DNA of 64,000 nucleotides from an uncultured delta proteobacterium. GTDB taxonomy: Bacteria > Desulfobacterota > Binatia > UBA9968. Each line of letters opens with the position of its first letter. Within the stretch, counting starts at the first letter, position 1. A program made the position numbers and the translations under genes. The notes below the pieces were generated by a model, which saw nothing but the letters and a program-made list of their open reading frames with translations, was not told the origin of the DNA and did no database searches. The stretch spans positions 32,001 to 96,000 of the forward strand of contig CAWJBB010000040.1 in assembly GCA_963840855.1 (NCBI GenBank), read 5' to 3'. Below, piece by piece: positions 17,789 to 36,076 of the stretch.

Positions 17789-18676
17789 TACGAATAGGAT
17801 TTTTAAACGACCTTTTCTATGGCGGAGCTATATCGCAACCCCGGCAGAGTTGTCAATTCCTGTTCTGCTTGATGAAAAACCCACTGTTGTACCGGTCCGC
17901 TTGGCCGGAGAGCAGTCGGGAGGCAAGCGAAAGGTTTCTTATGGAGACGCTCGGTCGAACTCAGAGCGACCGGCGCCGTCGGCTCGCGTTGGCAACCGGT
18001 TTTCGGCTCCTCAGATTGTCTGGAATAAATCGAATCGCTGCGCAGGGGAGCGTGGCGGGGCGTGCGTGGGCAGGCCCAGATGGGCGAGGATTTTGACAAT
18101 CACCGGCGGATCTTCGATGGCGGCGATGCTCTTCAAGCTGCCGCCGCAGTTCGGGCAGTGGTCGATGTCGATATCGAAGACTCGTTTGAGCAGCCTGGCC
18201 CAACTCAGGCGCGCCGGCGCGTGATCGCATGCGGGCGCGGTTGCTTGCTCTACCGGACTGGGGACGATTTCATGACGCAGCTTTGCGTTCGGCGCGAGCA
18301 CGCCATGGAAGCGGATTAGATGTAAGCGCGGACGGGGCACCAGGGCGGCCAGGCGCTGCATGAATTCCAGCGGCGCCATGACGATATGGGTGGTGCCGTC
18401 CTTGAACGCGCTCTTCAGTTGCAACACGACATCGCCGGCGCGATTACGCTTGAGCCGTTCGTTGGCGATCGCCGGGCGGGTGATATAGCGGCATAGGTGC
18501 TCTAGTTCCTTGCGCTGATCGGCGCCCCAGCGCACCGCCGCATGAAGGCTGAAGCCGTGGAGTTTGGTACACAGCTCCGGGGCGGATGGCCTGTCTGCGC
18601 TCGGCACGCTTTGCAAGCTCAGCACTTTCTGTCCCGCTCGCGGACCGGGCGCGATGCGGTAGGTGCATGAGGCCGC
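17789..18676 (-). mobile_element. IS91/ISCR remnant A2: oriIS, 3' region and 5'-truncated transposase (18011-18676)
   Basis: Paralogous to A1 (AASCTYRIA..LCRYITRPAIA..DLFQTI*). End GTTTAAAAATCCTATTCGT. Confidence 0.9.
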
Positions 18677-18677
18677 T

Positions 18678-18948
18678 GGGCGGTGAAGATTTGCGACGTT
18701 GGCCGCTTGCAAAACGGAAGGCAGCACTCCGCGGGCTGCTCGAAGTTGAGCGCGGCGGCATTCAGTACGTCGAGCACACGGAAGGTGATGGCGACAAGAT
18801 GTTCGAAGCGGTGTGCAAGCTCGGGCTTGAGGGCATCGTATCGAAGCGGGCTGGGTCGTTTTACCGATCTGGGCCGTCGAAGATGTGGATCAAGGTCAAG
18901 AACCCGAAGGCACCGGCGGCCACGCGCGTTCTTGAGGGAGGGCTTTAA
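18678..18948 (+). pseudogene. ATP-dependent DNA ligase (LigD-type) C-terminal fragment
   Basis: DLRRWPLAKRK, GLEGIVSKR..YRSG..WIKVKNP. N-terminus lost at the IS91 junction. Confidence 0.8.
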
Positions 18949-19068: not shown

Positions 19069-20056
19069 CTACCGCTTTTTCCGGTTAGGATGACTGAAAT
19101 TAAGTACCCAGCTGAACAAGCTATTTCCCAGTTTGCTTACAATCAGAGCGGACGAATCGTTTTTAATGAGATGACCGTCCGGCCGAATAAATTGATCAAA
19201 GTGAAACTTATTACGAGCAAGAGTAGTTACGAATTCTAATGAAGGGAAGCGACTAAGAACATGCTCAACGCGCATGCTTGGGTCTTTGTCGTGTTCCCAG
19301 TGACGTAGAAACTGATGACGGATTTGGTCACTTCGTTGGAATGACTCCTTATTGTTTCGCGGGGACAACATTAGGAGGAAATCGGCGAACTCTATCGACT
19401 CAGGTTTCATATCTAAGTCGAAAATTACCGTTATGGGTTCTCCATCTCTCGCTGAAGAGTCCAACAACGATCGAAAAAAATTCGATAACTCGCTGCAAAG
19501 ATCTTTTGCAAATATCGCATCCTCAGGTTCGTGCCAAACGAACATGCGGAATGTTCTCTCGCTATCGTCCAATACGTCCCTGGCGGACAAATTACTTTGG
19601 CGACGATATATTCCTACGGTTCCAGGTGTAGCTTTCTGTTTCTCGGATTTGGCCTCACCCAAAGTCAGTTTTGCTGCTTGGCGTGTCGCACCAAGCTTCT
19701 CGATTGCGCGCACGATCTTGTCGCGGTTCGCGATATCCTCCGTATGTTGACCCTGGAAACCAAACGGAATCCTATCTGCTTCGAGTCGTGACGTCTTGGT
19801 TGCGACGAGCTTACGATGTTTTAGCCCAAAACGTGCTTCATCGCGCACAAAGTTCGACTTGACTGATGTCTCGCTCCAGATGACTACAACGGCGCGAGCT
19901 TTGGAAAATGCAGCCTGAATTGCATCGGTGAAATCATCAGAAGCTAAAAGCTCGACGTCCCACCAAACCTGAAAGCCCAGCGATTGCAAATATTGTCCGA
20001 GTTCTTCGGCTAGAGCGCGGTCCTGGGCGTGCGTAGGAAATCACTACGTCAGACAT
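19069..20056 (-). CDS. TIR-domain protein with a +1 frameshift near 20027
   Basis: MSDVVISYAR / QDRALAEELGQYLQSLGFQVWWD..VVVIWSETSVKSNFVRDEA. One extra C separates the first 10 codons from ORF 19069-19989. Low GC. Confidence 0.75.
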
Positions 20057-20546: not shown

Positions 20547-20822
20547 GACGTATAGGACATTTAAACAACCTTTTTTTCTGATCGGAGCTATATCGCCAGC
20601 CCGGCGAGTTGTCAATCGTCTTTCTGTTGATGAAAATCCCAATCTTGCTTCGGCTGGCTTGGGCGGCGTAGTGGTCGGTGGCGCGCGAAGTGTTCCAGAT
20701 CGCGCCGCACGCTCGAACTCAGAGCGAGCGGCGCCGTCGGCTTGCGTTGGCAAGCGGTTTTCGGCTCTCAGATTGTCTGGAATAAATCGACTCGCTGCGC
20801 CGGCGAGCGCGGCGGGGCGTTG
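20547..20822 (-). mobile_element. IS91/ISCR remnant A3: oriIS, 3' region and last ~17 codons of transposase
   Basis: Similar to 11021-11290. Encodes APPRSPAQRVDLFQTI*. End GTTTAAATGTCCTATACGTC. Confidence 0.85.
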
Positions 20823-20865
20823 GTGGCGAGCCAGCCTATAGGCGGATGCGGCTCCTGGGTGACGG

Positions 20866-21045
20866 CTAAATAGCCGCGGGCTGGTCGAGCTCGAAGCCGA
20901 GGTCCTCGATCATGCGGTGCGCGTCCGAGGCTTCTTGACCGGGTGTCGTCAGATAGCCATTGACAAAGATCGAGTTCGCTGGATAGAGGCTGAGCGGCTG
21001 CAGCGAGCGCAGATTCACTTCGCGGCCGCCGGCGACCCGAATCTC
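20866..21045 (-). pseudogene. bioB: Biotin synthase C-terminal fragment
   Basis: Manual translation [52 protein letters not shown] (BATS domain). Not in the ORF track. Confidence 0.8.
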
Positions 21046-22012
21046 TATAAATACCTCGGCTGCGGGGATCTAAGAAAAGGCTTTGCCCGGATCAAGTGCA
21101 AGGAATGCCAGCATGAGGTTCTTCTCGCCTTCTCCTGTAAGGGACGCTACTTCTGCCCCTCATGGCATCAAAAAAGAGTGTTGATGTTTGGGGAATGGAT
21201 CACCGAAGATATTCTTTACCCGCTACCCCATAGGCAATATGTTTTTACGATTCCTAAGATGCTCCGTCCCTATTTCAGATTCGATAGAAAGCTCCTGGGG
21301 AAGCTCAGCCAATGCGCCTATCAGTCTCTCAAAGAGTTCTTCCAAACAACCCTCAACCGGAAAGAAGCCATCCCCGGGGTGGTAGTCTCGATCCAAACCT
21401 TCGGCGACCTGATTAATTTTCACCCCCACCTGCACTGTCTGGTCACCGACGGCTGCTTTATGGCCAACGACTGGTTTTACGTTCTGCCGGAAATTGACGT
21501 CAAAAAGCTGGAAAGCCTTTTTCGTCACAAAGTCCTAAAGCTCTTGCTCAGCGAGAAAAGGATCAGCGAGGAGCTGGTCGAAAAGCTCCTCTCCTGGAAA
21601 AATTCCGGTTTCAGCGTTCACAATCAGGTCAAAATCAAAAGCCGGGACCGCCGGGGGCAGGAAAGCCTGGCCCAATATATTCTGCGTTCCCCATTTTCTC
21701 TGGAGGAAATGACTTACCAGCAGCAGACGAAAACGGTTCTCTATCGCTCTAAGATGAACCCCGTCCTCAAGAAAAACTTCGCCGTCTTTCCCGTCTTGGA
21801 TTTGATTGCAACCCTCACCACGCATATCCCCAACCAAAGGGAAGCAACTGATCGGCTACTACAGCAATGTATCAAGGGAAAAAAGGAAAAAAGAGAAGCC
21901 CGAAGACAAAACCGAGATTAGCGAGATCGATGCCCCGCCGGCATCCAAGAAATTAAAAAAGCGCTGGTCCTACTTCATCAGGACAGTTTATGAACCAGAC
22001 CCGCTTATTTGT
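21046..22012 (+). pseudogene. IS91-family (subtype B) transposase, truncated at both ends, frameshift near 21840
   Basis: [42 protein letters not shown] (HUH), SGFSVH, WSYFIRTVYEPDPLIC. Confidence 0.88.
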
Positions 22013-22062
22013 TTCCATAACTGGCACTTGGGGTAACATCCATCGCTCTCTCCTTCCTTTCT

Positions 22063-23079
22063 CTAGTTGCCTTTTGCCTTATCCCTCGGGAACAAGTCCC
22101 GCATTTCGGGAATGACCCACAATGGGGGTTGACCATTGGCCACGCGCTGAATATTCGCGTAGCCATTGTGAAACCGCTTGCGAAAACTATCGAACGTGGG
22201 GCCGGCGCTGTGTGGCGTCAAGGTAACATTGGGCAGGGTCAGGAGCGGGTTCGTTGGATCGGGCGGTTCCTTGGCCTGCGTATCGAGCCCGGCTCCCAGA
22301 ATGCGCCCCTGGCGTAGGGCGTCAATCAGCGCTTCTTCCTGCACCACCTCACCGCGACACGTATTGATCAGAATCGCCTTGGGCTGCATGCGTGTCAGGG
22401 CCTTGGCATCGATCATGTCTCGCGTGGCGTCATTGAGTGGCACATGCAAGCTCACCACATCGGCCGTTTCCAGCAGCGTCTCGAGGGGAACGTAGCGCAC
22501 GTTCAGGCGCGCTTCTTCCTCAGGACTGCGCCGGATCGGATCGTAATAAATGATGGTGACATCAAAACCCTGCAGGCGACGGGCCACCTGCTGGCCAATA
22601 TTGCCCATGCCCACCAGCCCGACGGTTTTCCCCTCCAGCTCAAGAACGTCCACGGTGCGTGGTATTCCCCGGTGCCACCGACTAGCGGCCACATTGGGAT
22701 GGAAAGTTACCAGCTTACGGTATACCGCCAGAATGAGCATTATCGTATGCTCCGCCACTGCCACTGAGTTGGCACCGCCGTTAGAACAGATGGGGATGCG
22801 TGCGGCACGGGCGCCAGCGATATTGACCCGATCATAGCCGGCACTCAGCACCTGCACCAGTCGCAGCCGCGACGCCCGGGCATAGGCCTTATCCGGCAGG
22901 AAGCGCACAAATCCCATAAGGTACTCCGCCTCCTGCATAGCGGCAGCAATGTCCTCGGCACTGGCGTCCGCTGGCAGAACATGCAACGTAAATCCCGGTG
23001 GCTTCATCGCCTGCGCCTGGGTCAGCAGGTCCGCTGGCAACTCACCCCCTTGTGTAAAGACAATTGTTTCTTGCGCCAT
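22063..23079 (-). CDS. D-2-hydroxyacid dehydrogenase
   Basis: GLVGMGNIG, SLHVPL, LINTCRG, LTPHSAG. Confidence 0.92.
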   Translation of the reverse strand: MAQETIVFTQGGELPADLLTQAQAMKPPGFTLHVLPADASAEDIAAAMQEAEYLMGFVRFLPDKAYARASRLRLVQVLSAGYDRVNIAGARAARIPICSNGGANSVAVAEHTIMLILAVYRKLVTFHPNVAASRWHRGIPRTVDVLELEGKTVGLVGMGNIGQQVARRLQGFDVTIIYYDPIRRSPEEEARLNVRYVPLETLLETADVVSLHVPLNDATRDMIDAKALTRMQPKAILINTCRGEVVQEEALIDALRQGRILGAGLDTQAKEPPDPTNPLLTLPNVTLTPHSAGPTFDSFRKRFHNGYANIQRVANGQPPLWVIPEMRDLFPRDKAKGN

Positions 23080-23135
23080 GATTGTCTCCATCCCCTTCCA
23101 ACATGCGCACCGCTTCTCATGGCAGCGGACGAACC

Positions 23136-23502
23136 TCGATCCATAACTACGGTTCGACCGTTCGAGTCCCTCACGGCCCTGAGGGAGGATCGAAGGGTAA
23201 ACTCACCGCCCCGAGGAAGATCGAGGGACAGCCTCAGCCAAAGGCTCATCCGCCTTAGGTGGAAGTTAATTTAAAAGCTTCTGTACCCTAACCCGGAGCC
23301 AATGTCGATCCTTGCTCACTCAAGCCGATTAAGTTTGACATAGGACCACCTTATCGGATACTGTTCTCCGCCCAAAACGGCCATGGGAGGGCCCGTTTGC
23401 TCTTTCCAGTAACTGCTTAGGTTTCGAGGGCTGGGCTAAGCCACTGGTAGCGGTGCAATTCATCTGCGTTCCGAACCGGCGCGTGAAAAGTAATTTTGTA
23501 TC
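23136..23502 (+). mobile_element. IS91 subtype B 3' end: last transposase codons, 3' region and oriIS-like AAAAGTAATTTTGTATC
   Basis: Repeated at 28090-28330 and 31476-31785. Terminal part repeated at 10849-10935. Confidence 0.7.
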
Positions 23503-23581
23503 ATCGATCGAGTTCGAGATCGTCCCCGTGGTCCCGTCCGCCGAAACCCGCCAAGCCATCGAGCCGCTGCTCTAGGCGCAC

Positions 23582-23722
23582 ATGAAAGCGCGCAGATCGG
23601 TCGTCCACCTCACTCACCTCGGCGCCGCCGGATGGGAGATCACCGACGGCAAGCGTGTGATTCTGCTCGATCCGTATCTCTCTCGATTGCGGATCACCGG
23701 ACAGTTTGGGACGTACACCACG
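23582..23722 (+). pseudogene. MBL-fold metallo-hydrolase N-terminal fragment, preceded by a DUF3303-like C-terminal fragment (23505-23574)
   Basis: LTHLGAAGWEITDGKRVILLDPYLSR, then an abrupt junction. Upstream IEFEIVPVVPSAETRQAIEPLL*. Confidence 0.6.
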
Positions 23723-23772
23723 ACGACGCGGGCGCGCGTGCGCGTCTCGTTCATCCGAGGATACCCGGGCGG

Positions 23773-25185
23773 CTACGTGACCCGCGCCGGCCATACCGGC
23801 GCGTGGTACCCGAGCGGCACGGTCGGTCGCGCCCAGCGCGGCGGCGTTTCGGAAAGGCGCAGAACCGGCGCGAGATGGTGCAGCCGACCGACCGGAGTAT
23901 CGCTCGCCATCGACCAGCGGTCCAGCTCCGCTGGGGTGAATTCCTTTGGCACGTCCTTCAGCTCGGCCTCCGGCACCTGGCCGCGTCCGACGAGCCAGCG
24001 TCCAGTCTGAACGAGCGAGATCCGCACAAGCCAGCTGCCGCCCTCGCGCGCGCGGCGCGCGAGCGCCACCATCGCGCCGAACGCCATCAGATAGCCGGTG
24101 AGGTAGTCGATCGCCGATACCGGATAGAACTGCGGGCCCGGCGTGGTACCGGGGAACAGCTCGCCCTGGCGGCTGGTGATACCGCTGACCGTTTGCACCA
24201 CCGTGTCGAAACCGCGCCGCGACGCCCACGGCCCGATGTGGCTGAAGGCGCACAGCGAGACGAACACGATGCCGGGCCGCAGCTTCGCAAGTGACTCGGG
24301 CGAGAACCCGCGATCGCCGAGCGTGCCCGGCCGGTAGCCCTGGGAGAACACGTCTGCCTCGCGGACCAGTCCGCGCAAGGTCTCGACGTCCTTCGGTTCG
24401 CGCAGATCTAGGTGGGCTGAGAACTTGCCATGGCCGGTGTCGTACTCCTGGTAGCCGAGATTCGGCAGGTGCTTCGCGGTGATCTTCAACACATCGGCAC
24501 CGTGCTCGGCGAGCGTGCGTGCGCAGGTCGGCCCGGCGAGGACGCGCGTGAGGTCGAGCACACGAATGCCCGACAACGGCCGATCGCCATCGGGGAGCTT
24601 TTCCGCCGGGCTGTCGCCGATCTTGATGATCTCCATCAGCGGCAGCGAGGCGATCGCGGCGGCTTGCGGATGCTTGGCCCACTCGTCCATGGTGCGCACC
24701 ATGCCGCCGGCGCCCTTCGCGGCGATGATCGCCTCCTCGAGTGCGAGCGCGTCCCACTCGGCCACTGCTTTGCGCACCGCCTCGCGATCTTCCGGCACGC
24801 CGAGCACGCTGAGCGCGGCGGCACGATGGTTCGGGAAGTTGCAGTGGAGATAGCTCCAACGGCCGTTCTTGGCGGGATAGACTCCCATCACCACGTTGCG
24901 CTCAGTCGACACGGGCGCGCCGTCCAGCTTCATGTAATGCCCACTGCGGAGCGAGGCGGTCGCTTGCCGGGTATCGACCGCGACCTCCTGTCGACGCCCG
25001 GTGCGCAATTCCCACAGCTCGGAGACGGCGAGGCCGACCGCCGCGAGCGCGGCGGCGCTGGTCTCGCCGATGCGGAACGGCGTGGGCAGGATTGGATCGG
25101 CGACTCCGGTGATTTCGACGGCGCGGGCGCGCTCGGCGTTCCACCCGGCGACGGGAAGAATCGTGCGCAGCGCAGCGTGGCTCAT
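23773..25185 (-). CDS. CoA-transferase family III (CaiB/BaiF), two-domain type
   Basis: RPLSGIRVLDLTRVLAGP..LAEHGADV, ADVFSQGYRPG, RRGFD. Start MSHAALR overlaps the upstream stop. Confidence 0.9.
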   Translation of the reverse strand: MSHAALRTILPVAGWNAERARAVEITGVADPILPTPFRIGETSAAALAAVGLAVSELWELRTGRRQEVAVDTRQATASLRSGHYMKLDGAPVSTERNVVMGVYPAKNGRWSYLHCNFPNHRAAALSVLGVPEDREAVRKAVAEWDALALEEAIIAAKGAGGMVRTMDEWAKHPQAAAIASLPLMEIIKIGDSPAEKLPDGDRPLSGIRVLDLTRVLAGPTCARTLAEHGADVLKITAKHLPNLGYQEYDTGHGKFSAHLDLREPKDVETLRGLVREADVFSQGYRPGTLGDRGFSPESLAKLRPGIVFVSLCAFSHIGPWASRRGFDTVVQTVSGITSRQGELFPGTTPGPQFYPVSAIDYLTGYLMAFGAMVALARRAREGGSWLVRISLVQTGRWLVGRGQVPEAELKDVPKEFTPAELDRWSMASDTPVGRLHHLAPVLRLSETPPRWARPTVPLGYHAPVWPARVT

Positions 25186-26336
25186 GGCTTCTCCTCGAAC
25201 AACGCGAGATCGATCGCGTCGCCCATCGCGCGATAGCCGAGGTCGCTCGGGTGAAGGTGATCGCCGCAATCGTACTTGGGCAGCATCCGGGTCGGGTGGT
25301 CCGGATCGCGCAATGCCCGATCGAAATCGACGATCGCGTCGAACGCGTCCGTCTTCCGCAGCCACTCGTTGACCTCCTGGCGAATCGCTTCGCGCTTCGG
25401 GTTCCACGCGCCGGGAAGGAACGTCTCGTTCTCGAACGGAGTGAGCGTGGCGACGATGACTTGTATTCCACGCGCGTGGCCGCGCACGGCGAATTGCTTC
25501 AGCCCCCCGATCATCTGCGGCGCGGTAACCTCTTCCTCGGGTTTGCCGTTACGGTTCCGCAGATCATTGGTGCCCAGCATGATGACGGCGTGGGTGACGC
25601 CGGGCTGCGCCAGCACGTCGCGGTCGAAACGACGCAGGCCGCTGTCGCCGCGGATATCGTGCAGGATACGGTTTCCGCCGAGCCCCTGGTTCATCACCGC
25701 CATCGGCCGTCCGCTCTGCCGTGCCATGAGCCGGCGCGCGAGCTGAGAGGGCCAGCTGTGATGACCGTCATGGGTCGAGATGTTGGCGTCGGTCAGCGAG
25801 TCGCCGACCGCGACGACGGCGCCCGTCTCTCGCGGCGCGACGACATCGATGCCGGACACGAAGTACCAATCATCCGTCAGGCGGCCGACCGGCATGATCT
25901 CTGCGGCGGAGAAATCTCCCGGCGGCGAGATGTAGTTGGTCTGTCGCGCATAACGCCCGGTGATTCCGAAGCTCGCCGGCAGATCGGCCGGCAGGTGCAC
26001 GCTGACGGCGAGGTCCGACAACGGCGCGAATGCGAGCTCGACTGGATCGCTGACGACGAGCGCGCCGACGGCGATCGTGGCGCCGGCTTCACCACCGAAC
26101 GTGATCCTCCGGCTGGAGCCGGGCACGACCGCGGGCCCCACGCTCCGCAGGCCGACGCAGGCTGCACCGATCGCCAACGGCCGCGTGCCGTACGCATTCG
26201 AGATGCGCACGCGTAGCGCGCTGCCGCCGATGCTGACGCGCGGAATCATGCGCAGCGTGTGGTTGCCGAACGCCGCGCCTTCCGCGGGCGCCGGCGCCGC
26301 AGTCCAGGTCCCGACCCAGTGCGTGTTGTCCCTCAT
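25182..26336 (-). CDS. SGNH/GDSL hydrolase
   Basis: GDSLTD, NQGLGGNR, GTND, DHLHP blocks. Confidence 0.92.
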   Translation of the reverse strand: MRDNTHWVGTWTAAPAPAEGAAFGNHTLRMIPRVSIGGSALRVRISNAYGTRPLAIGAACVGLRSVGPAVVPGSSRRITFGGEAGATIAVGALVVSDPVELAFAPLSDLAVSVHLPADLPASFGITGRYARQTNYISPPGDFSAAEIMPVGRLTDDWYFVSGIDVVAPRETGAVVAVGDSLTDANISTHDGHHSWPSQLARRLMARQSGRPMAVMNQGLGGNRILHDIRGDSGLRRFDRDVLAQPGVTHAVIMLGTNDLRNRNGKPEEEVTAPQMIGGLKQFAVRGHARGIQVIVATLTPFENETFLPGAWNPKREAIRQEVNEWLRKTDAFDAIVDFDRALRDPDHPTRMLPKYDCGDHLHPSDLGYRAMGDAIDLALFEEKP

Positions 26337-26473
26337 GGTGCCTCACTACATCGTCAGGGCTTTTTCCGTCGCATGCGCCGGGCTTCTAGTCGTTGCGCCA
26401 TCTCGGGCATGTGCAGGAGGAGCGTGTACGGCCGATGTTGGGCCGACCCGCTCGGCTCTGCATGAAGGCGTCA

Positions 26474-27256
26474 TCACTTCCCGGCGTCGGCCGCGGCCTG
26501 ACGCATCGTCTTCAGATAGGCCTCGCCGCTCTGCTGGAGCAGTCGGTTCACGCCGCTGTGGAAGTACTGCACGCCCAGTCCCAGGAACTTGGGAATGAGG
26601 TTGTCGGGGCAGCTACACCCGGCGATGCGTCCGGCGCCAGTGATGATCTTGACGCCACGCTCCATCGCCTGCTGCACGTCCGGGTGGGCCTGCTGGCCGG
26701 TGAGCCCCATCGATTGCGAAAGGTCCCCGGACCCGATGAAGTACACGTCCACCCCTGCCACCGTAACCAGATCCGGCAAGTTCTCGATGGCCTCCATTTC
26801 TTCGACCATCACGCACACGAGGGTCTGGCGGTTGGCTTCCCGGGCATAGTCCGCGGTGGCGCCCTTGAAGCCGTAGCCAGCCGGACGACCACCGCTGAAA
26901 ATTCCTCGATGACCCTCCGGGCCGTACTTCACTGCATCGACGGCGGCCCGGGCTTCGTCCGCCGTGTTGACGTGGGGAACCTGCACGCCCCAGGCGCCCC
27001 GATCCAGGAACGGGGCGATGATTTCGGGCTTGTTCCCGACCGGGCGCACGATCGGCGCCATGCCGCTCAGCTCAGCGGCGGCGATGCACGCCTCGGCGGT
27101 GTCGACCGTGATGGAACCATGCTCGTTGTCGAGCAGGATCCAGTCGAAGCCGAGGTGACCGAGCATCTCCACCACGGGCGGCGAGGGGAAGGTGCACATG
27201 ACGCCGAAGGCAGCCTTCCCGGCGTAGAGCCGTTGCTTGAGCGTGTTCTCGCGCAT
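26474..27256 (-). CDS. HpcH/HpaI aldolase family protein
   Basis: GFDWILLDNEHG, LDRGAWGVQVPHV, FIGSGDLSQSMG. Confidence 0.92.
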   Translation of the reverse strand: MRENTLKQRLYAGKAAFGVMCTFPSPPVVEMLGHLGFDWILLDNEHGSITVDTAEACIAAAELSGMAPIVRPVGNKPEIIAPFLDRGAWGVQVPHVNTADEARAAVDAVKYGPEGHRGIFSGGRPAGYGFKGATADYAREANRQTLVCVMVEEMEAIENLPDLVTVAGVDVYFIGSGDLSQSMGLTGQQAHPDVQQAMERGVKIITGAGRIAGCSCPDNLIPKFLGLGVQYFHSGVNRLLQQSGEAYLKTMRQAAADAGK

Positions 27257-27359
27257 GATCGTCTACACCCTCCTCGGGCGCTTGCCCTCCGCTAGCTCGA
27301 TCAGCGCGTCGTGGATGCGCCGGTCGATCTCGATGCCCTCACGCGCGCGGCGCGCGCGG

Positions 27360-27393
27360 TACTTCATCCGAAAAGTTTATGAAACAGACCCTC
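27360..27393 (+). mobile_element. 34-bp IS91 subtype B transposase stub (YFIRKVYETDP)
   Basis: Matches 21971-22004 (YFIRTVYEPDP) at nucleotide level. Confidence 0.65.
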
Positions 27394-27399
27394 ACTCGG

Positions 27400-27966
27400 C
27401 TACCGCGGCGGCGTCCAGTCCTTGTGGAGGACACGACGCACCATCGGTTCAAAGGTCGCCATCGGCTCGCTCGCGTAACCGGCGTCGAAGGAGACCTCGT
27501 CGTAGAGCGCACAGAATTCCGCGGTGCGTTCGAAGTGCGGGCTCCCCCGGTACTGCTCGCGCGCGTTATCATCGATCTTCAAGTGGTGCCCGTAGAAGTA
27601 CACCTGGAACACCGGATGGTGCTCGAGCATCCAGCAGTTCGCCTCCGACACAAACGGCCGCAGCACCGCGGCCACGACCTCGCCATGGTTGAACGGCCCG
27701 AGGGACTCGCCGATGTCGTGGAGCAGGGCACACACCACGTACTCCTCGTCGCGCCCGTCGCGCAGGGCGCGCGTGGCCGCTTGCAGGCTGTGCTGGAGGC
27801 GATCGACCGGATAGGCCTCGTCCGCTTTGAGATTCGTCAGGAGCCCGATGAGCAGGTCGGGGAGTTTCCGGATGTTATCCTCGTGCACGCGGGCGAGCAC
27901 CGCGAAATCCGCATCGGTCCCCTGGTCCATCCGCCGGAAGTGCATCTTGCCGATGTCACTCGCCAT
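27400..27966 (-). CDS. HD-domain phosphohydrolase
   Basis: RLQHSLQAATRA..ALLHDIG..NHG. Confidence 0.88.
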   Translation of the reverse strand: MASDIGKMHFRRMDQGTDADFAVLARVHEDNIRKLPDLLIGLLTNLKADEAYPVDRLQHSLQAATRALRDGRDEEYVVCALLHDIGESLGPFNHGEVVAAVLRPFVSEANCWMLEHHPVFQVYFYGHHLKIDDNAREQYRGSPHFERTAEFCALYDEVSFDAGYASEPMATFEPMVRRVLHKDWTPPR

Positions 27967-28069
27967 ACCGTTCTCCTTCGCGCGTCACCGCGCAACCGAA
28001 CCCAGACGTGGTACGTGGACGCAAGGATCTGCAGCCTGCCTCGACCCGGACCAGGTTGTACGATTGGCA

Positions 28070-28330
28070 CCAGTCAAAGAGATTACCTTCGATCCATCCT
28101 ACGGTTCGACCGTTCGAGTCCCTCACGGCCCTGAGGAGGATCGAAGGGTAAACTTACCGTCCCGAGGAAGATCGAGGGACAGCCTTAGCCAAAGGCTGAT
28201 CTGCCTTAGGTGGAAGTTAATTTAAAAGCTTCTGTACCCTAACTCGGAGCCAATGTCGATCCTTGCTCACGCAAGCCGTCTAAGGTTGACCTAAGATCAC
28301 CTTATCGGATACTCTCCGCCCAAAACGGCT
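28070..28330 (+). mobile_element. IS91 subtype B 3' segment, copy 2
   Basis: PVKEITFDPSY followed by about 240 bp nearly identical to 23136-23380. Confidence 0.7.
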
Positions 28331-28404
28331 CTGGCGGTTGAAATATAGATTGCTCGATAATTGACTGCTAAAGCAACAACCACCCACATCTGGAGAAAAA
28401 AACG

Positions 28405-29769
28405 ATGACGACCAGCACCACCAGCGTCACTCCCGATCTGATCCACTACATGGCGAATGCCAGCACGTCTCCTGTTCCGTCCCAGGTCTTGGTGAAAGCC
28501 AAAAACCACGTACTGGACACCATTGCCGCCATGGTCTCTGGCACCACCATCAAACCCGGCATTTTTGCGATCCGCTACATCGGGCAACAAGGAGGGAATC
28601 CCGAAGCCCAGGTGGTGGGCAGCGGGATTGTTACCTCGGCTATCAATGCCGCTCTGGCCAACGGGATGTTGGCCCACTCCGACGAGACCGACGACTCCAA
28701 TGGCTCGGCCGGGATTCATCCAGGCTGCGCCGTAATCCCCGCTGCCCTCGCGATGGCGGAGCGGGAAAACGCCAGCGGTGAGGCCTTCGTACGTGCGGTG
28801 ATTCTGGGCTACGACATCGGCTCGCGTACCACCAAGGCCCTGGGTCGGGACGCGATGCGCGCGAGAAACCACCTGCCCTTCAGCATCGGCGGCACCCTGG
28901 GCGCCACCGCGGCGGCGGGCTCGCTCGCTCGCCTCAGCAAAGAGCAGTTCCGGCATCTGCTCTCCTGCGGCGCCCAACAGGCTTCCGGAGTGATGACCTA
29001 CGCACGAGATACGGAGCATATCGAAAAGGCCTTCATCTTTGGCGGAATGCCCGCCCGCAATGGCGTGACTGCCGCCACTATGCTACAGAGCGGCTACACC
29101 GGCGTTGACGATGTCTTTGTCGGGGACGGCAATTTCCTGGCCGCCTTTGCCGACTCCGCCACGGCGCAGGAGCTGACGGCGGAGTTGGGCAGCCGCTACG
29201 AGGTCATGCTGACCAACATCAAAAAGTACTGCGTCGGGTTCCCCATCCAATCGGCTATCGAAGGGCTGCTCGGCCTCATGGCGGAGCACCAGCTCAGAGC
29301 CGACCAGGTAGAGCGCATCACCGCCCGCCTTCCCGAAAGCGGCGCTCGTACCGTAAATGACCGGGAGATGCCCGATGTCAACTTGCAATACGCGTTCGCC
29401 GTGACTCTGCTGGACGGCAAGCTTACCTTCGAGGCGGCCCATTCCTTTGAGCGCATGAAAGACCCCAGGGTGCTCGATCTGAAGAAGAAGGTCACGCTCA
29501 TTGGCGACCCGGAGTTGAGCCGCGCACGACCGGAAGGCCAGTCCATCGTCCAGGTAATCACGCGAGACGGTCGCCGGTTGGAAAAGCGGGTGACCACCTT
29601 CAAGGGCCGGTCGGAGAATCCACTGACCAGTTACGAAGTCGAGGAAAAAGCCCTGGAACTGCTGGAGCCGGTCCTTGGCCAGTCGCGCACCCGGCAGTTG
29701 ATGGACGCCGTTGGAAAGCTGGAAACCCTTGCCAGCGTGCGGGACCTCCGCCCGCTGCTGAGGGCATAG
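28405..29769 (+). CDS. MmgE/PrpD family protein
   Basis: AALANGMLAHSDETDD, HPG, GMPARNGVTA, KKYCVG, GRSENPL. Confidence 0.93.
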   Translation: MTTSTTSVTPDLIHYMANASTSPVPSQVLVKAKNHVLDTIAAMVSGTTIKPGIFAIRYIGQQGGNPEAQVVGSGIVTSAINAALANGMLAHSDETDDSNGSAGIHPGCAVIPAALAMAERENASGEAFVRAVILGYDIGSRTTKALGRDAMRARNHLPFSIGGTLGATAAAGSLARLSKEQFRHLLSCGAQQASGVMTYARDTEHIEKAFIFGGMPARNGVTAATMLQSGYTGVDDVFVGDGNFLAAFADSATAQELTAELGSRYEVMLTNIKKYCVGFPIQSAIEGLLGLMAEHQLRADQVERITARLPESGARTVNDREMPDVNLQYAFAVTLLDGKLTFEAAHSFERMKDPRVLDLKKKVTLIGDPELSRARPEGQSIVQVITRDGRRLEKRVTTFKGRSENPLTSYEVEEKALELLEPVLGQSRTRQLMDAVGKLETLASVRDLRPLLRA

Positions 29770-29822
29770 GTTCAGGTGGGTGCCGATGAGAATTCGCTCT
29801 CTTCTCGTGGCGGCCATGCTCT

Positions 29823-29839
29823 AAAAGCAAATTCCTATC
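29823..29839 (+). mobile_element. oriIS-like end AAAAGCAAATTCCTATC
   Basis: Best match to the IS91 oriIS core (AAATTCCTAT). Same motif as 10919, 23486 and 31769. Confidence 0.55.
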
Positions 29840-30089
29840 TGTCACGTTTCCATTTCTGGAATTGTCACGGCTGGGACGAGTGACGAACCACGAGGGGGGA
29901 GTGTGGAGCGATATTGGTAACCGGCTATGCCGGCGTTAGGACTCCTTCACTTTGTCACACAGGGCTCGCCCTGCTTCGTCCCCGTGTCGGCAAGTTGTCG
30001 CGAGCAAAAAGCTCGAGCTGGTGCTCTTCGGAATCATCCTTAACCGTTAGTGGCCACCGACCCGGTTCGGTGGTCCAAGTTCGACGTAG

Positions 30090-31388
30090 CTAGTCGGGCG
30101 AGGGAACGTCGCGCGGGACTTCGGCGTCGAGGCCCATCGCGCGACGGAAGGCCTGCCGGATCTCCTCCGGCTGGCCGGTCAAGAAGGGGAAGTCCTTTCG
30201 CTGGACGAGTCCCGGCGTGCGCTCGCGCCGCTTGTCGCTGTTCGCTCGGGAGTAGCCGCCGACGAAATACTCTCGGCCGATAATCGGGAGCCGCACGCAG
30301 GCGTTCTGCGCCGGATCGCGGATCACCGCCTTGGGCTCGCCGCCGCGGGCCACGAGCTCGGCCTGCTCCAGCATCCGCTTGCGCATTATGATGACGCCGC
30401 GGTCGCTCTCGCCCAGGTGCTCCTGGGTCCGGTCGGCGAGGGTACCCTGGCCCACCCAGGCGACGAAGTCCTGGTTCATTACGTGCGTGGTGATCCAGCG
30501 CCCCGTGCGTGCCTCGTTGATCGGGCTGTACCAGTACGGGATGCGGTCCTGCGTGAACGGCTCCATCTCGTTCGGCACCCGGTCGAAGAACCAGCCCACA
30601 CTCAGCATGTTCTCGTCGTCGATGGGCACCCGCCATTCGAAGTGGCCGCCGGTGAAGAGGCAGTTTGGCCACAAGCAGGTGCGCCCGACGGTCCACAGCT
30701 CGTCCGACTCTGACTGACCTTCCAGAACACGACGGTAGACGAAACCGTACTCGAACTCATCGAAGCCGATCTTCAGATGGGGCGGCGGCTTCGGCCCCTC
30801 GTCACCCTGCAAGACACGCGTCCAGTGGCTGTGCAGCCACTCGAAGTGCACAGGGTCGATCGAGTTCTCCTGGCACTGAAACCAGTTGCAGGGGACTTCC
30901 GAGAAGACGATCTGCACAAAGCCGTTGCGCCAGGTGAACGGCTCCCAGGTGGGTACGAGCGGCGCTGGCGGCGGACCCAGGTACGCCCACAGCAGGCCCG
31001 CCTTGGCCTCCACGGGATACGCCTTGATACGCACGCGGTCCTTGAAGCGAGCCTCGGGATTCGCGACCTCCTCGAAGGGCTGCTGCAAGCACTTGCCGTT
31101 GTGATCCCACACCCAGCCGTGGTAGTGGCAGCGCAGCCCGCAGCCCTCGACCCATCCATAGGATAGGTCGGCGCGGCGATGGGCGCAGTGCCGGTCTAGG
31201 AGACCATAGGTGCCGGCCTGGTCCCGATAGAGGACGAGATCCTCGCCCAGCAGACGCACGGGCTTCGTCGCCTTGTCGTCCAACTCGGCCACGGCGGCGA
31301 TTGGCATCCAGTAGCGCCGAAGCAGCTCTCCCATCGGCGTGCCGGCGCCGACCTGCGTTAACCTCAGGTTCTGTTCGTCGCTCAACAT
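30090..31388 (-). CDS. Rieske non-heme iron oxygenase alpha subunit (phthalate 4,5-dioxygenase-like)
   Basis: GTPMGELLRRYW, CAHR..CHYHGW Rieske motif, ENSIDPVHFEWLH. Confidence 0.92.
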   Translation of the reverse strand: MLSDEQNLRLTQVGAGTPMGELLRRYWMPIAAVAELDDKATKPVRLLGEDLVLYRDQAGTYGLLDRHCAHRRADLSYGWVEGCGLRCHYHGWVWDHNGKCLQQPFEEVANPEARFKDRVRIKAYPVEAKAGLLWAYLGPPPAPLVPTWEPFTWRNGFVQIVFSEVPCNWFQCQENSIDPVHFEWLHSHWTRVLQGDEGPKPPPHLKIGFDEFEYGFVYRRVLEGQSESDELWTVGRTCLWPNCLFTGGHFEWRVPIDDENMLSVGWFFDRVPNEMEPFTQDRIPYWYSPINEARTGRWITTHVMNQDFVAWVGQGTLADRTQEHLGESDRGVIIMRKRMLEQAELVARGGEPKAVIRDPAQNACVRLPIIGREYFVGGYSRANSDKRRERTPGLVQRKDFPFLTGQPEEIRQAFRRAMGLDAEVPRDVPSPD

Positions 31389-31475
31389 CGGTTCGGATCC
31401 TCAATCTCGATTTTCGAAGGTGGACGTATCCTAAGAGATTACTTTCCTGCTTGTGCGTGGTCGCACGCAGACAGG

Positions 31476-31785
31476 CGATCCATCTACGATTCGACCGTTC
31501 GAGTCCCTCACGGCCCTGAGGAGGATCGAAGGGTAAACTCACCGTACCGAGGAAGATCGAGGGACAGCAAGCTAATCTAAAAGCCTCTTAACGCAATTAA
31601 GCGGCATCTGTCCAGTCCTGTCCGCAAGCCAAGGCGAAGTTGACATAACGCCGCCGTATCGGATAGGCTCCGCCACACTAGTCCTTCATCTTTGCGCTGC
31701 ATCGGGATCTTGAACCGACTCTAGCGCAATCACGGAGGCGGTTTGTGATATCTCGACGGCTACTCTCCAAAAGCAAGTTCATATC
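31476..31785 (+). mobile_element. IS91 subtype B 3' segment, copy 3, with oriIS-like AAAAGCAAGTTCATATC
   Basis: Diverged copy of the repeat at 23136 and 28090. Confidence 0.6.
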
Positions 31786-31844
31786 ACCTAGGCTTCTCCT
31801 CTTTGAACTAAAAGCAGGAGGTTGTCATGAAAAAATCTGCGATT

Positions 31845-31992
31845 CAGAGACCCAGAGTTTTTAGCTGAGACGAAAAAGAGGGGATGGCCTGTCGGACCTG
31901 TAGCTGGTGAGGAGCTTGAATCGCTGGCCAAAGAGGTGATCGCGCAGCCGCCTGAAGTTGTCCAACGGCTCAAAAAACTCTTGGGCGAATAA
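31845..31992 (+). pseudogene. Bug/TctC binding protein C-terminal fragment
   Basis: RDPEFLAETKKRGWPVGPVAGEELESLAKEVIAQPPEVVQRLKKLLGE*, parallel to the C-terminus of 32242-33273. Confidence 0.7.
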
Positions 31993-32241: not shown

Positions 32242-33273
32242 ATGAAAAAGACTGGCCTGTTGTTTGTGCTCGCATTGCTCTGGAGCGATTACGCTACGGC
32301 GCAAACTCCCTACTTTCAGGGTAAAACGATCCGAATCATCGTCGGCTATCCAGCCGGCAGCGCCCACGACTTATGGGGGCGGCTGATCGCGACACAGATA
32401 AACAAGTTTATTCCCGGGAGTCCAGCCACCGTTGTGCAGAACATGCCCGGCGCCGGGTCGATGACCGCGACCAACTACGTTTACAACGTGGCCAAGCCTG
32501 ATGGCCAGACCGTCGTCGTCAATAACGCGGCGCTTTACTTCGAACAGCTGCTAAAACGGAAAGAAGTCCAATACGATTGGTCGAAGTTCACCTGGGTTGG
32601 CAGTATGACCCCCACCTCTGTGTTGCTGTACATGTGGGCTGCCGCTCCGTATAAAACCATCCACGATGTGCGCATCGCCACGGTGCCGCCCAAGTGCGGC
32701 GCTACGGGCACGGGAAATATCAGCTACTATTTGCCGAAGCTACTCGAAGAAGCCATCGGCGCGAAGTTTCAATTGGTTTCGGGTTATGAAGGGGGCGCGA
32801 GCATCGAATTAGCCGTGGAGCGCGGCGAAGTGCAGTGCCGCGCCTTTTCCGTTCAGACTTTCTTCGGCCGCGAGCCGTTTAACACCTGGCGGAGCAAGAA
32901 CCTGGTGCGGGTGTTGGTTCAAGGCGGCAAGAAGCGCGACCCGCGCTTGCCCGAAACGCCCCTGTTGAGCGAGTTGATGGATGAATACAAGACTTCCGAA
33001 GCGAATCGCCGTTTAGTGACCGTAGTGGTGGCATCGGGGGAATTCGGCAGCGCGCCAATGCTGGCGCCGCCGGGGATTGCTGCGGAGCAAGTTAAGATTT
33101 TGCGCGCAGCTTATGCCAAGGCGCTGACCAGCCCGGACCTTATCGCCGACGCGAAGAAGCAAGGTCTCGACGTCGAGTTAATTCACGGCGACGATCTCGA
33201 AGCGCTCGCAAAAGAAGTCATGAACCAACCCGCCGATGTCATCGCGTCGATGAAAAAAGTCATGGGCGAGTAA
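32242..33273 (+). CDS. Bug/TctC tripartite tricarboxylate transporter substrate-binding protein
   Basis: GKTIRIIVGYPAG, VVQNMPGAGS, KPDG, LAVERGEV. Confidence 0.9.
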   Translation: MKKTGLLFVLALLWSDYATAQTPYFQGKTIRIIVGYPAGSAHDLWGRLIATQINKFIPGSPATVVQNMPGAGSMTATNYVYNVAKPDGQTVVVNNAALYFEQLLKRKEVQYDWSKFTWVGSMTPTSVLLYMWAAAPYKTIHDVRIATVPPKCGATGTGNISYYLPKLLEEAIGAKFQLVSGYEGGASIELAVERGEVQCRAFSVQTFFGREPFNTWRSKNLVRVLVQGGKKRDPRLPETPLLSELMDEYKTSEANRRLVTVVVASGEFGSAPMLAPPGIAAEQVKILRAAYAKALTSPDLIADAKKQGLDVELIHGDDLEALAKEVMNQPADVIASMKKVMGE

Positions 33274-33311
33274 ATTTTTAATGTCCCTTTCGGGAATGGC
33301 TGAAAGCCCCG

Positions 33312-33349
33312 TCAGCCTGATGTCATTAAAAAAATTCTGCAACACCTAG
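33312..33349 (+). mobile_element. IS91 transposase micro-stub (QPDVIKKILQHL)
   Basis: Equivalent to DPPVIIKILSHL in remnant A1, i.e. the segment missing from the subtype B copies. Confidence 0.45.
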
Positions 33350-33468
33350 AAAAATGGTAGGTGTCAGGCTTTGGTTATTTGGTATTTCTCCTCTCGCCCT
33401 CTGCAGATGGACGCGCGGTTCCCTCCTCTAGAACTTCCTTGTCTCACACAGAACCAGAAAAAGCACAT

Positions 33469-33609
33469 AATGAAGCTCCTCGGAGCAAAGCTCCGAGGTA
33501 TCTTTGTGAAATTCTTCGAAGCCCTTCAACCCTCCTTCGCCAAGGCTACGGAGGGTTCTCCTCACGTTCATCCTCGCAGCAAGCTGCGAGGTATTCGGCG
33601 AAGGAGAAT
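33469..33609 (+). repeat. ~140-bp triple-hairpin element, copy 1
   Basis: CCTCGGAGC-AAA-GCTCCGAGG ... CCTCGCAGC-AA-GCTGCGAGG. Near-identical copies at 36551 and 60228. Confidence 0.85.
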
Positions 33610-33764
33610 CAAAGCTGACACCATTGTTACTTTTCTGTCACCCTCGGGCGGTAGAAGTGGAATCGGGCATGAAATACACTGACGGCGCAACTGCGCGACG
33701 GATATTCTAGGGGAGGCGTGTCAGCCTAGCCGAAGCCCAAGAGCCTGTTCAAGGGAGCGGAATT

Positions 33765-34865
33765 ATGAAAGCCATTCGCATTCACAAATTTGGTCCCACC
33801 GCGGAAGTGCTTCAGTACGAAGAGGTTCCGATTCCGGAGCCCGGCCCCAACGAACTTTTAATCAAGGTCGAAGCGGCTTCGCTGAACAGGGCGGATTTGG
33901 CTCTGTCCAAGGGCACCTATCGCATCGCTCCCGAGGAGCTGCCGGTCACCCCTGGCCGAGAGTTCGCGGGAACTGTCGCCAAGCTTGGCGACGGAGTTCA
34001 AGAATTCAAGGTTGGCCAGCGAGTAGTGGCATACACCGGCACGGGAGGCTACGCAGAGTACGCGCTCGCTAAGGTCTCAGAGACTCTGCCAGTTCCCGAC
34101 GGCGTTGACTCGGCAGCCGCGGCAGCGATGCCCACAGTATTTCTCACTGCCTGGTTCGGTTTGTTAACGGATGGCAAACTAAAGGCGGGCGACTGGGTGC
34201 TCGTGCAGGCCGGCAGTAGCGGCGTCGGCATCGCCGCGATTCAAATTGCAAAACAGCTAGGCACCAAGGTCATTACCACTTCCAGCGGTGATGACAAATG
34301 CAAGAGGTTGCGCCAACTCGGATCTGACGCGGCGATCGATTACACGAAGCAAGGTTTCGTCACGGAAGTCATGCGGATCACCACCCCAGCCGAGGGTCGG
34401 GATCAGGCTGAGCACTACCAGGAGCGTCGCCACCCCGACGTCATGGAGGGCGTGAATGTGCTTCACAGCTGGGGCATCGTCCCAGCGGTTCGTCGACGGC
34501 CATTCCCCACGTATCGCGGCGTCGATGTCGTACTCGAGATGATTGGCGGCGACATCTACCGCAAGAGCTTAGAAGTACTGGCGCCAGGCGGCCGCTTGGT
34601 CTCACTCGGCGGAGCCTTCGGCGCAGTACCCGACCCACCGCCCGCTCTAACCGATGGGCGCAAGGCGAGCCGCTTCTCCATCACGAACTATCTCAAGGCG
34701 AATCCGGAGGAGTTCCGCGAGTTGGCTAACCTCCTTAACCTCGTCCAGGAAAAGAAATTTCAAGTGATCATCGATCGGAGTTTTCCCCTGGCAGAAGCGC
34801 GGGCAGCGCAGCGCCACCTCGAAGGACGCGGCCACTTCGGCAAGGTCGTACTCAAGATGAGCTAA
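33765..34865 (+). CDS. NADPH:quinone oxidoreductase (MDR family) with a ~43-aa in-frame insertion
   Basis: TPGREFAG, GGYAEY, AGSSGVG, GVDVVLE, HFGKVVL. Confidence 0.88.
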   Translation: MKAIRIHKFGPTAEVLQYEEVPIPEPGPNELLIKVEAASLNRADLALSKGTYRIAPEELPVTPGREFAGTVAKLGDGVQEFKVGQRVVAYTGTGGYAEYALAKVSETLPVPDGVDSAAAAAMPTVFLTAWFGLLTDGKLKAGDWVLVQAGSSGVGIAAIQIAKQLGTKVITTSSGDDKCKRLRQLGSDAAIDYTKQGFVTEVMRITTPAEGRDQAEHYQERRHPDVMEGVNVLHSWGIVPAVRRRPFPTYRGVDVVLEMIGGDIYRKSLEVLAPGGRLVSLGGAFGAVPDPPPALTDGRKASRFSITNYLKANPEEFRELANLLNLVQEKKFQVIIDRSFPLAEARAAQRHLEGRGHFGKVVLKMS

Positions 34866-35123
34866 AAGAGCAAAGAGCCAAAAGCAAATTATCAGAGGTC
34901 AGACGTGAAAAGGGCGCACTGTCAGGCTTTGGTGAAGTATACCATCCCCGGAAATTCTCCGTCTTCGCCGGACGAACAGCATGGTCCAAAACCCTCCGAA
35001 CGCGGCCGCAAATGTTCAATTCCCCCTATGTGAAGGGGGCCTGAGTTGTAAGTTGATGGTTCATCGCCTCAACAATTTTACGGTTCGGTTGATTGTAACC
35101 ACAATTCAGACTACACTCTCCCT

Positions 35124-35417
35124 GTGAATCGGGTTGTATTCGCTCCCGCAGCGTTGCGCCAGTACAAGCGATTACCGGCTGCAGCCCGAAGTCTGCTTAA
35201 GAAAGAAATTCGTGAGCAACTCGCATTTCAAGACCCAATGGAAGAAACGCGCAATCGATTCCGGCTGCGCCGGCTTTCTCCGCACGCGGATTTTGAGCTT
35301 CGCGTTGAACCTTGGAGAGTGTTCTACAGGGTACGGGAAGAGCTGGTTATCGTGGAGCTGGTCGGGCGCAAAAAAGGCAACGTGTTGTTGATAGGTGGAA
35401 AGGAGTTTGAATTATGA
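35124..35417 (+). CDS. RelE/ParE-family toxin
   Basis: FELRVEPWRVFYRV..VGRK. Overlaps the downstream antitoxin. Confidence 0.8.
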   Translation: MNRVVFAPAALRQYKRLPAAARSLLKKEIREQLAFQDPMEETRNRFRLRRLSPHADFELRVEPWRVFYRVREELVIVELVGRKKGNVLLIGGKEFEL

Positions 35418-35662
35418 AGATCGAAAGCTTGCGCGAAGTTAAGGCCAAGCTGAGCAAGATCGTTAAGGAATTGCCATCGGAAAAATCCGTCGTGATTACA
35501 AAAAACGGCCGCCCTTGTGCGGTGCTTTTTCCCGTGACGGAAGAAACGGATCTCGAAAGCATGTTGCTCGCCCAGCGAAAAGATTTTTGGCAATTGCTGG
35601 ACCGCGCGCACAAGGAAGGAGAAAAGAAAGGCTTCACCCGGCTTGAAGATGTTCCGGACTGA
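35414..35662 (+). CDS. Phd/YefM antitoxin
   Basis: LREVKAKLS..VVITKNGRPCAVL. Confidence 0.88.
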   Translation: MKIESLREVKAKLSKIVKELPSEKSVVITKNGRPCAVLFPVTEETDLESMLLAQRKDFWQLLDRAHKEGEKKGFTRLEDVPD

Positions 35663-35725
35663 TGCACGTTCACTTTCAGGTGATAGTCTTGAAAGATCTT
35701 CTGGGTCAAATCCCGGGGGACTTTT

Positions 35726-36074: not shown

Positions 36075-36076
36075 CA

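Follow-up and report, generated by a model that had tools for sequence, protein, structure and literature searches.

How do intact catabolic genes come to lie between the pieces of what looks like one transposable element? This question is raised by a stretch of 64,000 bp (the window; positions 32001-96000 of contig C40) from G000, a metagenome-assembled genome (MAG) of an uncultured member of the Binatia (7.1 Mb in 93 contigs, 94% complete, 8.3% contaminated). On a profile map of the element concerned, pieces of one IS91-family type are seen in element order and in one orientation, joined to foreign catabolic genes. A preliminary description had noticed this and explained it by internal gene capture in the manner of eukaryotic Helitrons, with recurrent breakpoints in the 3' part of the transposase gene. 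Our comparison of related loci suggests instead that the conserved unit is a gene joined to an ori-side tail of the element and not the combination of transposase, gene and tail. On balance we favor the explanation that the region is a hypervariable island of such gene-plus-tail modules, which would recombine via the homology of their tails, while their far ends would be joined illegitimately.

The transposase remnant of the window matches the families Y2_Tnp (PF04986) and Zn_Tnp_IS91 (PF14319) above their cut-offs, and these matches, together with the conserved ori motif, bear out the earlier assignment of the repeat to the IS91 family. The element profile has 1795 positions, with the YETDP codons at 1380, the KEIT codons at 1527, the transposase stop codon at 1563, the TTGACA box of a promoter-like site at 1628 and the ori at 1775-1791. 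From left to right, the relevant part of the window contains the following features (HMM, hidden Markov model):

20548..20826, minus strand: ori end belonging to an ISCR-like IS91-family element of a second type (further copies: 11021-12321, 17790-18727)
20866..21045, minus strand: biotin synthase gene remnant (C-terminal tail), a non-IS stub (BATS domain, E 5.5e-11; 83.5% to a copy on C50)
21046..22012, plus strand: IS91-family transposase remnant (profile about 409-1403 of 1795) without 5' end or ter, ending in YEPDPLIC
22063..23079, minus strand: D-2-hydroxyacid dehydrogenase cargo gene, start toward tail 1 (GC 0.595)
23132..23504, plus strand: tail 1, with the last transposase codons, two palindromic inserts, a promoter-like site (23335-23362) and the ori motif (23486-23502)
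23507..23575, plus strand: DUF3303-like C-terminal tail fragment (weak Pfam match, E 0.0056, under the cut-off)
23582..~23734, plus strand: N-terminal fragment of a metallo-beta-lactamase fold (weak Pfam match, E 0.18, under the cut-off)
23773..27358, minus strand: high-GC block (0.66-0.69) with genes for a CoA-transferase III, a GDSL hydrolase and an HpcH aldolase, plus a truncated C-terminal gene fragment
27360..27393, plus strand: transposase stub YFIRKVYETDP of 34 bp (87.5% to the unit-1 transposase)
27400..27966, minus strand: HD-domain cargo gene, start toward tail 2 (GC 0.649)
28067..28330, plus strand: tail 2, from the KEIT codons through a promoter-like site (28286-28313), 93% like tail 1
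28405..29769, plus strand: MmgE/PrpD-family cargo gene, right after the promoter-like site of tail 2 (GC 0.624)
29800..29839, plus strand: ori-only remnant (motif 29823-29839; ori matrix score 26.3; weak by HMM alone)
30090..31388, minus strand: Rieske oxygenase (LigXa-like) cargo gene, start toward tail 3 (GC 0.658)
31433..31786, plus strand: tail 3, with KEIT codons, a 30-bp palindromic insert (31446-31475), a promoter-like site (31640-31667) and the ori motif (31769-31785)
31827..31992, plus strand: hollowed solute-binding-protein gene, its leader joined to its C-terminal tail (matches C40:124594-124367 and 123473-123322)
32242..33349, plus strand: TctC binding-protein gene with a 37-bp transposase stub (33313-33349), an eroded gene-plus-tail module

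All element pieces in the window are co-oriented and keep the order of the element. The transposase remnant covers profile positions 409-1403, tail 1 about 1533-1793, the 27360 stub 1361-1395, tail 2 1518-1672, the ori-only remnant 1752-1791 and tail 3 1527-1792, and the tails are mutually 68-93% alike. Most of the three-unit layout proposed earlier can be followed on this map. Unit 1 runs from the transposase end YEPDPLIC at 22012 through the dehydrogenase gene to a resumption at about 23132-23136 and an ori end at 23502, and unit 2 from the stub (27360-27393) through the HD gene, a resumption at about 28067-28070 and the PrpD gene to an ori end at 29839. In unit 3, the Rieske gene and the ori end at 31785 are as described, whereas the element resumes at about 31433 with the KEIT codons, about 43 bp before the 31476 given previously, and its palindromic insert precedes the DP codons; since it has no transposase piece upstream, unit 3 is not a case of internal capture. 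The four cargo genes (2-hydroxyacid dehydrogenase, HD, MmgE/PrpD and Rieske) are intact, and the three leftward ones start 44-101 bp away from their tails. Compared with a GC of 0.573 ± 0.028 in 774 host genes, the HD and Rieske genes and the CoA-transferase block have values of 0.65-0.69, the PrpD gene 0.62 and the dehydrogenase gene 0.60.

The transposase gene of unit 1 is truncated at its 5' end and has a frameshift near 21838. A terIS is absent from this copy, whose cut end at YKYLGCG is joined to the tail of bioB; relatives possess 5' regions of the element, and C40 carries two of them as separate remnants. G000 yielded no intact transposase of this type, and the view of the pieces as non-autonomous remnants of one IS91-family element stands. 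The closest transposase relatives come from Candidatus Binatia and deltaproteobacterial MAGs. An almost complete relative of the element, 82% identical in protein, is present in locus L001, and an intact transposase of 435 amino acids, which passes the NCBIfam IS91 model, is encoded in the metagenome loci L223 and L227. On NF033538 (cut-off 125) the intact relative of L223 scores 169.7 and the window fragment 119.1, while the score of L223 on NF052416 (141.7 versus 925) leaves it outside ISCR clade Ia. In L223 the gene (3986-5326, minus strand) lies within a full-length element, with infB- and truB-like genes on either side as judged by inspection, and the gene product is a candidate helper. 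Contig C35 of G000 (32771-34500) holds an IS91-type transposase gene with an internally deleted 5' part and a tyrosine-recombinase-like gene upstream.

A conserved motif about 210 bp past the transposase stop is common to 64 distinct ends, and we take it to be a putative oriIS from its position and its resemblance to such sites. It is followed by A, Y and T in 53, 58 and 46 of these ends, and no empty site was found that would assign these bases to target or element. Hairpins at the three ori ends of the window are no better than in shuffled sequences. Short palindromic repeats, of three families or more, are also inserted in the element at recurring points, some of them in frame in transposase genes. 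They occur in the window at 23149-23263, 28101-28210, 31446-31475 and 31485-31565 as well as in L001, L043, L048, L049 and L056, and several of their insertion points are near breakpoints (about 1391, 1445 and 1536 of the profile).

Copies were compared in two samples. In the genomes 185 pieces were mapped, 42 in G000 and 143 in relatives, the latter from 60 fetched regions and 20 small loci; nine cross-matches to a second IS91 type were dropped and the 40-bp ori remnant was added by hand. Since the regions of the relatives were picked around matches, only G000 represents an unbiased set. Of the 123 genomes of the order, 40 have matches to tail DNA, and contig C40 holds 20 of the 42 G000 pieces on 5.8% of the genome. 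Mapping against reversed sequence as a control gave a single match (E 0.42). A genome-wide scan with the ori matrix at a score of 15 was noisy (55 matches versus 36 in reversed sequence), and the matrix was applied only near known pieces. The second sample comprises at least 120 metagenome loci with the KEIT-SY motif, 80 of them with long flanks, and counts for metagenome loci refer throughout to these matches as listed. Genes were called with a hexamer model built for the analysis, which was checked against the Pfam-confirmed genes of the window only.

The distribution of the cargo genes in other genera shows which parts of the arrangement stay together. The dehydrogenase gene has 97% identical copies in G044 and G066, and that of G044 has the same tail junction as in the window without a transposase stub. 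An 89% copy of the HD gene in G052 is likewise found without a stub, with a weakly scoring, degenerate tail piece on its start side. Copies of the Rieske gene with 90-92% identity occur at two loci of G042 and in G079, G081 and G083. All have a tail piece on the start side, and the left flanks visible at four of these five loci differ and in no case consist of a transposase. The modules are thus 89-97% identical at the DNA level, but rpoB identity to the five of these genomes measured is 73-79%, so the modules move between genera. In the same way, the TctC gene with the stub at 33313 is matched in L157, L161, L217 and L220, and since the tail extends to the ori in these four metagenome contigs, the stub in the window is the eroded tail of the left-hand module. 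Each cargo is single-copy in G000, and no copy of the PrpD gene was found in the other 122 genomes of the order. In G042, genes for CoxG and a TPP enzyme (8516-10355 in the window) adjoin the Rieske gene, and relative to G042, G000 has 19 kb extra between two copies of a GACGAG-rich short repeat (10685-10743 and 29867-29911).

At least one block probably came from farther away. The high-GC block at 23773-27358 is probably of Rokubacteria origin, as the 90% cluster of its HpcH aldolase contains a Candidatus Rokubacteria protein; the block has no match in the other 300 sampled genomes of the class. By analogy with the TctC module, the stub at 27360 may be read as the former tail of this CoA-transferase block, which would have been overwritten by an incoming module of HD gene and tail. 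The island also contains stubs of genes unrelated to insertion sequences, namely those of bioB, the DUF3303-like gene, the lactamase-fold gene and the binding-protein gene, which indicates that breakage is not specific to the element. An intact leader of the solute-binding-protein gene sits past the tail in G044.

Orientation and allelic composition of the pieces are informative as well. Neighboring pieces within 10 kb are co-oriented in a ratio of 69:13 in the genomes and 52:10 in the metagenome loci, and the upstream piece ends at the ori in 41 of the 69 co-oriented genome pairs. A replication-strand bias was considered as the cause and rejected, as the data showed no association (22:20 in the present type, 13:15 in the second). 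On C40 all remnants are in plus orientation from 42.8 to 118.7 kb and in minus orientation from 124.6 to 358 kb, with the flip at 119000-124600 and no clear switch in skew. The tails themselves are mosaics. The G044 tail is like tails 1 and 2 up to the -35 box (47/57) and like tail 3 beyond it (77/96 versus 70/104). Mosaics are also seen among unbroken pieces, since eight of ten pairs with at least 93% likeness in the coding end are less than 90% alike in the tail. For unit 1, the unbroken piece most similar to the transposase side (96%) has a tail of 69%, and the one most similar to the tail (96%) a coding side of 77%, both values being below those of all control pairs (10 and 5 pairs). This allele test leans toward two different source copies for units 1 and 2. 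A same-copy test of stub versus tail by rank correlation had no power, with equally low values in the controls.

It might be asked why transposase-less tails are kept at all. The sequence TTGACA-16-GATACT at 23335-23362 scores 10/12, its columns are conserved across copies, and the predicted sigma70 hexamers face outward through the ori. Where this site is kept, the downstream gene is in sense orientation in a ratio of 56:18 (G000 23:2), and where it is lost in a ratio of 19:28 (Fisher p 1e-4, with related copies not being independent). The metagenome loci give 22:5 with the site versus 1:4 without it. There is thus statistical support for the view that the tails are kept as carriers of a putative outward sigma70-type promoter. 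In addition, genes next to left ends at 1500-1575 are biased toward the leftward direction (19:9; G000 10:2).

We propose the following course of events. An IS91-family element would have landed beside a gene, after which most of the transposase and the ter would have been lost and the gene fused to an ori-side tail of 250-450 bp. Comparison of the genomes shows that such modules circulate between genera of the host family, with at least one block probably from another phylum. In the step that fits the data best, homologous recombination would pair an incoming module with a resident tail, while sequence-unspecific illegitimate recombination would join the other end of the module to the chromosome. 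Pairing via tail homology would account for both the co-orientation and the mosaic tails. Where the resident piece reached farther than the incoming tail, a short collinear stub of the transposase would remain to the left of the new gene and mimic internal capture. The tails would be kept for their outward sigma70-type promoter, and possibly for a weaker leftward one, driving the neighboring gene. Rolling-circle mobilization in trans from the ori, by a helper encoded elsewhere, may seed modules. The competence genes comEC, dprA and comM are present in G000.

A different course would be one-ended rolling-circle transposition, in which a helper transposase starts at the ori, reads into the cargo up to a surrogate terminator and inserts the product, so that the arrays would be piled insertions. 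In the IS91 family the ori is essential and the ter leaky, and one-ended transposition is described (PMC13181058, PMC13393415) and established (PMC13181058, PMC3189936). Moreover, most pieces in our set keep the ori with its A-Y-T, and an intact transposase is available in L223 and L227. However, internal breaks show no enrichment of the A-Y-T motif of the ori (28/176 versus 22.5 expected and 6/53 versus 6.8, with junctions placed to a few bases), and a cleavage motif of the transposase type at these breaks was rejected. None of 163 ori ends has the remainder of an interrupted element within the next 60 bp; the one exception, L039, lies outside this set. Random insertion would also not yield local co-orientation, and G000 lacks an intact helper of this type. 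We therefore regard this course as unlikely for the region.

The proposal of the preliminary description, true internal capture, puts each cargo into one element, and stub, cargo and tail with ori would move as one non-autonomous rolling-circle unit. Its appeal is evident from the three broken pairs of the window, which are all collinear with 80-124 bp missing. Similar cases exist in L186 (break at 1398), L204 and L234, and cases with larger losses in L086, L088, L183 and L224. The junction of transposase and dehydrogenase gene at 22012 is common to G066, which belongs to another genus. The transposase remnants of G000 and G066, however, have their left ends at 409 and 940, and no fixed boundary of a unit is seen. 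No ter-side end encloses any cargo of the window, and no multi-copy composite element was found, the left boundaries varying between genomes.

A hotspot in the transposase 3' end, on which that proposal relied, was rejected when all copies were aligned. Of 92 distinct internal right-hand breaks in the genomes, two lie at YExDP (1385-1410), both in the window, and one of 12 transposase-body breaks in the metagenome loci does so (L186, 1398). As for DPSY, left ends at 1510-1540 make up 16 of 163 in the genomes, about twice the average over 1250-1600; poor alignment of the linker confounds this excess, which is not seen in the metagenome loci. In G000, 12 of 42 left ends are at 1518-1563 and 13 at 1602-1624. 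In the metagenome loci, 11 of 69 left ends are at 1500-1527 (28 bp) and 33 at 1425-1499 (75 bp), so that their density at KEIT-DP does not exceed that just upstream. The breaks are distributed over the element, and several pieces have plain internal deletions. The pattern is a gradient toward the ori with the promoter region retained, not a cleavage hotspot.

Neither is internal capture the rule. Among the broken pairs in the genomes that are separated by cargo, 7 of 19 are collinear (null 6.9), and the three tight ones are all in the window, with 0 of 16 elsewhere (null 0.95); the same cargo is found elsewhere with a tail but without a stub. Of 28 metagenome anchors with an upstream piece more than 200 bp off, 21 have an upstream piece that ends at the ori, five are collinear and two are not, the latter probably representing one event. 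The appearance of internal capture is thus genuine but a minority outcome, and as an account of the region as a whole we consider capture improbable.

It is also conceivable that the pieces are passive debris, left by full elements that inserted repeatedly and then decayed through deletions, without contributing to gene traffic or expression. The spread, motif-free breaks, the plain internal deletions and the non-IS stubs would fit. Such debris, however, leaves the co-orientation, the exact gene-tail junctions across genera, the crossovers inside tails and the promoter-dependent sense bias unexplained, and we hold it to be very unlikely.

Assembly support was examined in 4 of 24 metagenome runs. 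Contig 17 of X4 spans 22101-23183 with 10 differences and bridges the junction of dehydrogenase gene and tail, which (at 23136) is also present in G044. Contig 18 of X4 joins a longer tail to the PrpD gene, and the junction of Rieske gene and tail recurs in G042, G079, G081 and G083. The ori at 29838 is shorter by 4 bases in all four runs. Contig depth in four soil runs is lower over the body of the transposase, which we do not count as evidence. Among the contigs listed, none bridges the stub junctions (27359 and 27393) or the exact junction of HD gene and tail. Since junctions recur in independent genomes or contigs, wholesale chimerism is unlikely; this concern, raised in the preliminary description, is answered for several junctions, while the left side of unit 2 has no bridging contig among those listed. 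An assembly chimera through repeats in a MAG with 8.3% contamination, although donor-like genes are common in soil metagenomes and the stub junctions have no bridge among those contigs, is hardly credible given that the junctions at 22012 and 23136, tail-PrpD, Rieske-tail and TctC-stub recur independently and that the tails have no more than the likeness given above.

Several points weigh against recombination via tail homology as we propose it. The related genomes are not independent samples, and no native donor context was found for the cargo. Three of seven broken metagenome pairs are tight (null 1.16, p 0.044), and both halves in L186 and in L234 best match one unbroken relative. The position of the PrpD gene, with the promoter on one side and the ori on the other, agrees with insertion into a single tail. 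The allele test only leans to two source copies because the controls are mosaic themselves. Competence genes are also present in 8-10 of 14 control genomes. The conserved motif taken as a promoter could be a transposase-binding site instead, and the leftward gene bias is not repeated in the metagenome loci (5/11), so that a leftward promoter is best treated as hypothetical. Finally, L204 (1-3684 as oriented) contains a near-clean insertion of 3.3 kb at the KEIT codons. By inspection, this insertion consists of three genes, for a binding protein, a dehydrogenase-like and an amidohydrolase-like protein, and is the best case of a true internal insertion. True internal insertions do exist as a minority.

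Parts of this picture have precedents. Experiments on Helitrons support gene capture by terminator read-through (PMC4778049), as in IS91, and the contrast between the two that had been drawn for this locus was therefore overstated. Both are rolling-circle relatives that gather host DNA, with new ends arising through truncation and read-through (PMC4778049); the present element has no Rep-helicase and no Helitron ends, and no multi-copy composite was found. Helitron-style capture in bacteria is not established by the present data. For IS801, miniature ori-side fragments are known in Pseudomonas syringae, and the authors of that study conclude that most fragments result from reorganization and act as recombination regions and less as carriers (PMC3189936). 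The ori-side fragments of the window likewise vary in length and adjoin accessory genes, but they belong to another transposase subgroup and host, carry catabolic cargo and have exact gene-tail junctions across genera; there are at least 42 remnants in G000 and matches in 40 of the order's 123 genomes. ISCR1 has outward promoters in its oriIS that were tested (PMC6218425). Similarly, the outward promoter predicted here belongs to the ori region and faces downstream genes that are read the same way, although ISCR1 is full-length and is tied to class 1 integrons, whereas our predicted site lies in transposase-less remnants.

IS91 elements, some of them partial, are also linked to catabolic genes (PMC5737581, PMC9676059). 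The present locus resembles such IS91/ISCR loci in having IS91-family elements, often partial, beside degradation genes (PMC5737581, PMC9676059, PMC13181058) and differs in internal breaks without a cleavage-like motif and in a host without an intact transposase of the type. For the joining step, homology-facilitated illegitimate recombination offers a model, in which one homologous anchor and one illegitimate join swap resident for foreign DNA (PMC2884548). It was shown experimentally only in other, naturally competent species, and here it is inferred, with a multi-copy IS remnant as anchor. Our search of mostly open-access literature found no paper on this element in Binatia. Most likely, the traffic of genes with tails is a variant of the known role of IS91-family remnants.

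The window has further features of a mobile region. The second, ISCR-like element (11021-12321, 17790-18727 and 20548-20826, minus strand; also C1:66500-99900 of G000) is represented by ori ends that are 5'-truncated, share one orientation and point the other way from the first type in this island, with 30 matches genome-wide. Between its ends lies an open reading frame of 1319 amino acids (13488-17447, minus strand) without a Pfam match, followed by a TIR-domain gene at 19069-19989. The region 35100-41300 is dense in paired small genes of toxin-antitoxin-like type; a segment at 36783-37001 is duplicated at 39739-39959, and histidine-rich repeats lie at 38498-41749. At 43879-46562, inverted repeats of about 50 bp bracket a two-gene element of 2.6 kb, presumably an IS21-type insertion sequence. 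Two copies of one gene start (50227-50313 and 51860-51946) look like the beginning of a REP-associated tyrosine transposase gene.

If tail homology indeed guides the exchange of modules, dead transposon ends would provide both homology and expression, and illegitimate uptake would become semi-directed. This would explain how a widespread uncultured soil lineage gains catabolic and transport genes from distant donors, and it would be a natural large-sample case for the idea proposed for IS801 fragments. The intact transposase and the short tails can be assayed in the laboratory. It is possible, if doubtful, that throughout the Binatia the transposase-less tails have been domesticated as a cassette system without an integrase, serving as handle and two-way promoter, with an occasional insertion of the L204 type. 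If this were true, single catabolic genes of other genera or phyla would be plugged in, expressed at once and exchanged as cassettes of gene and tail.

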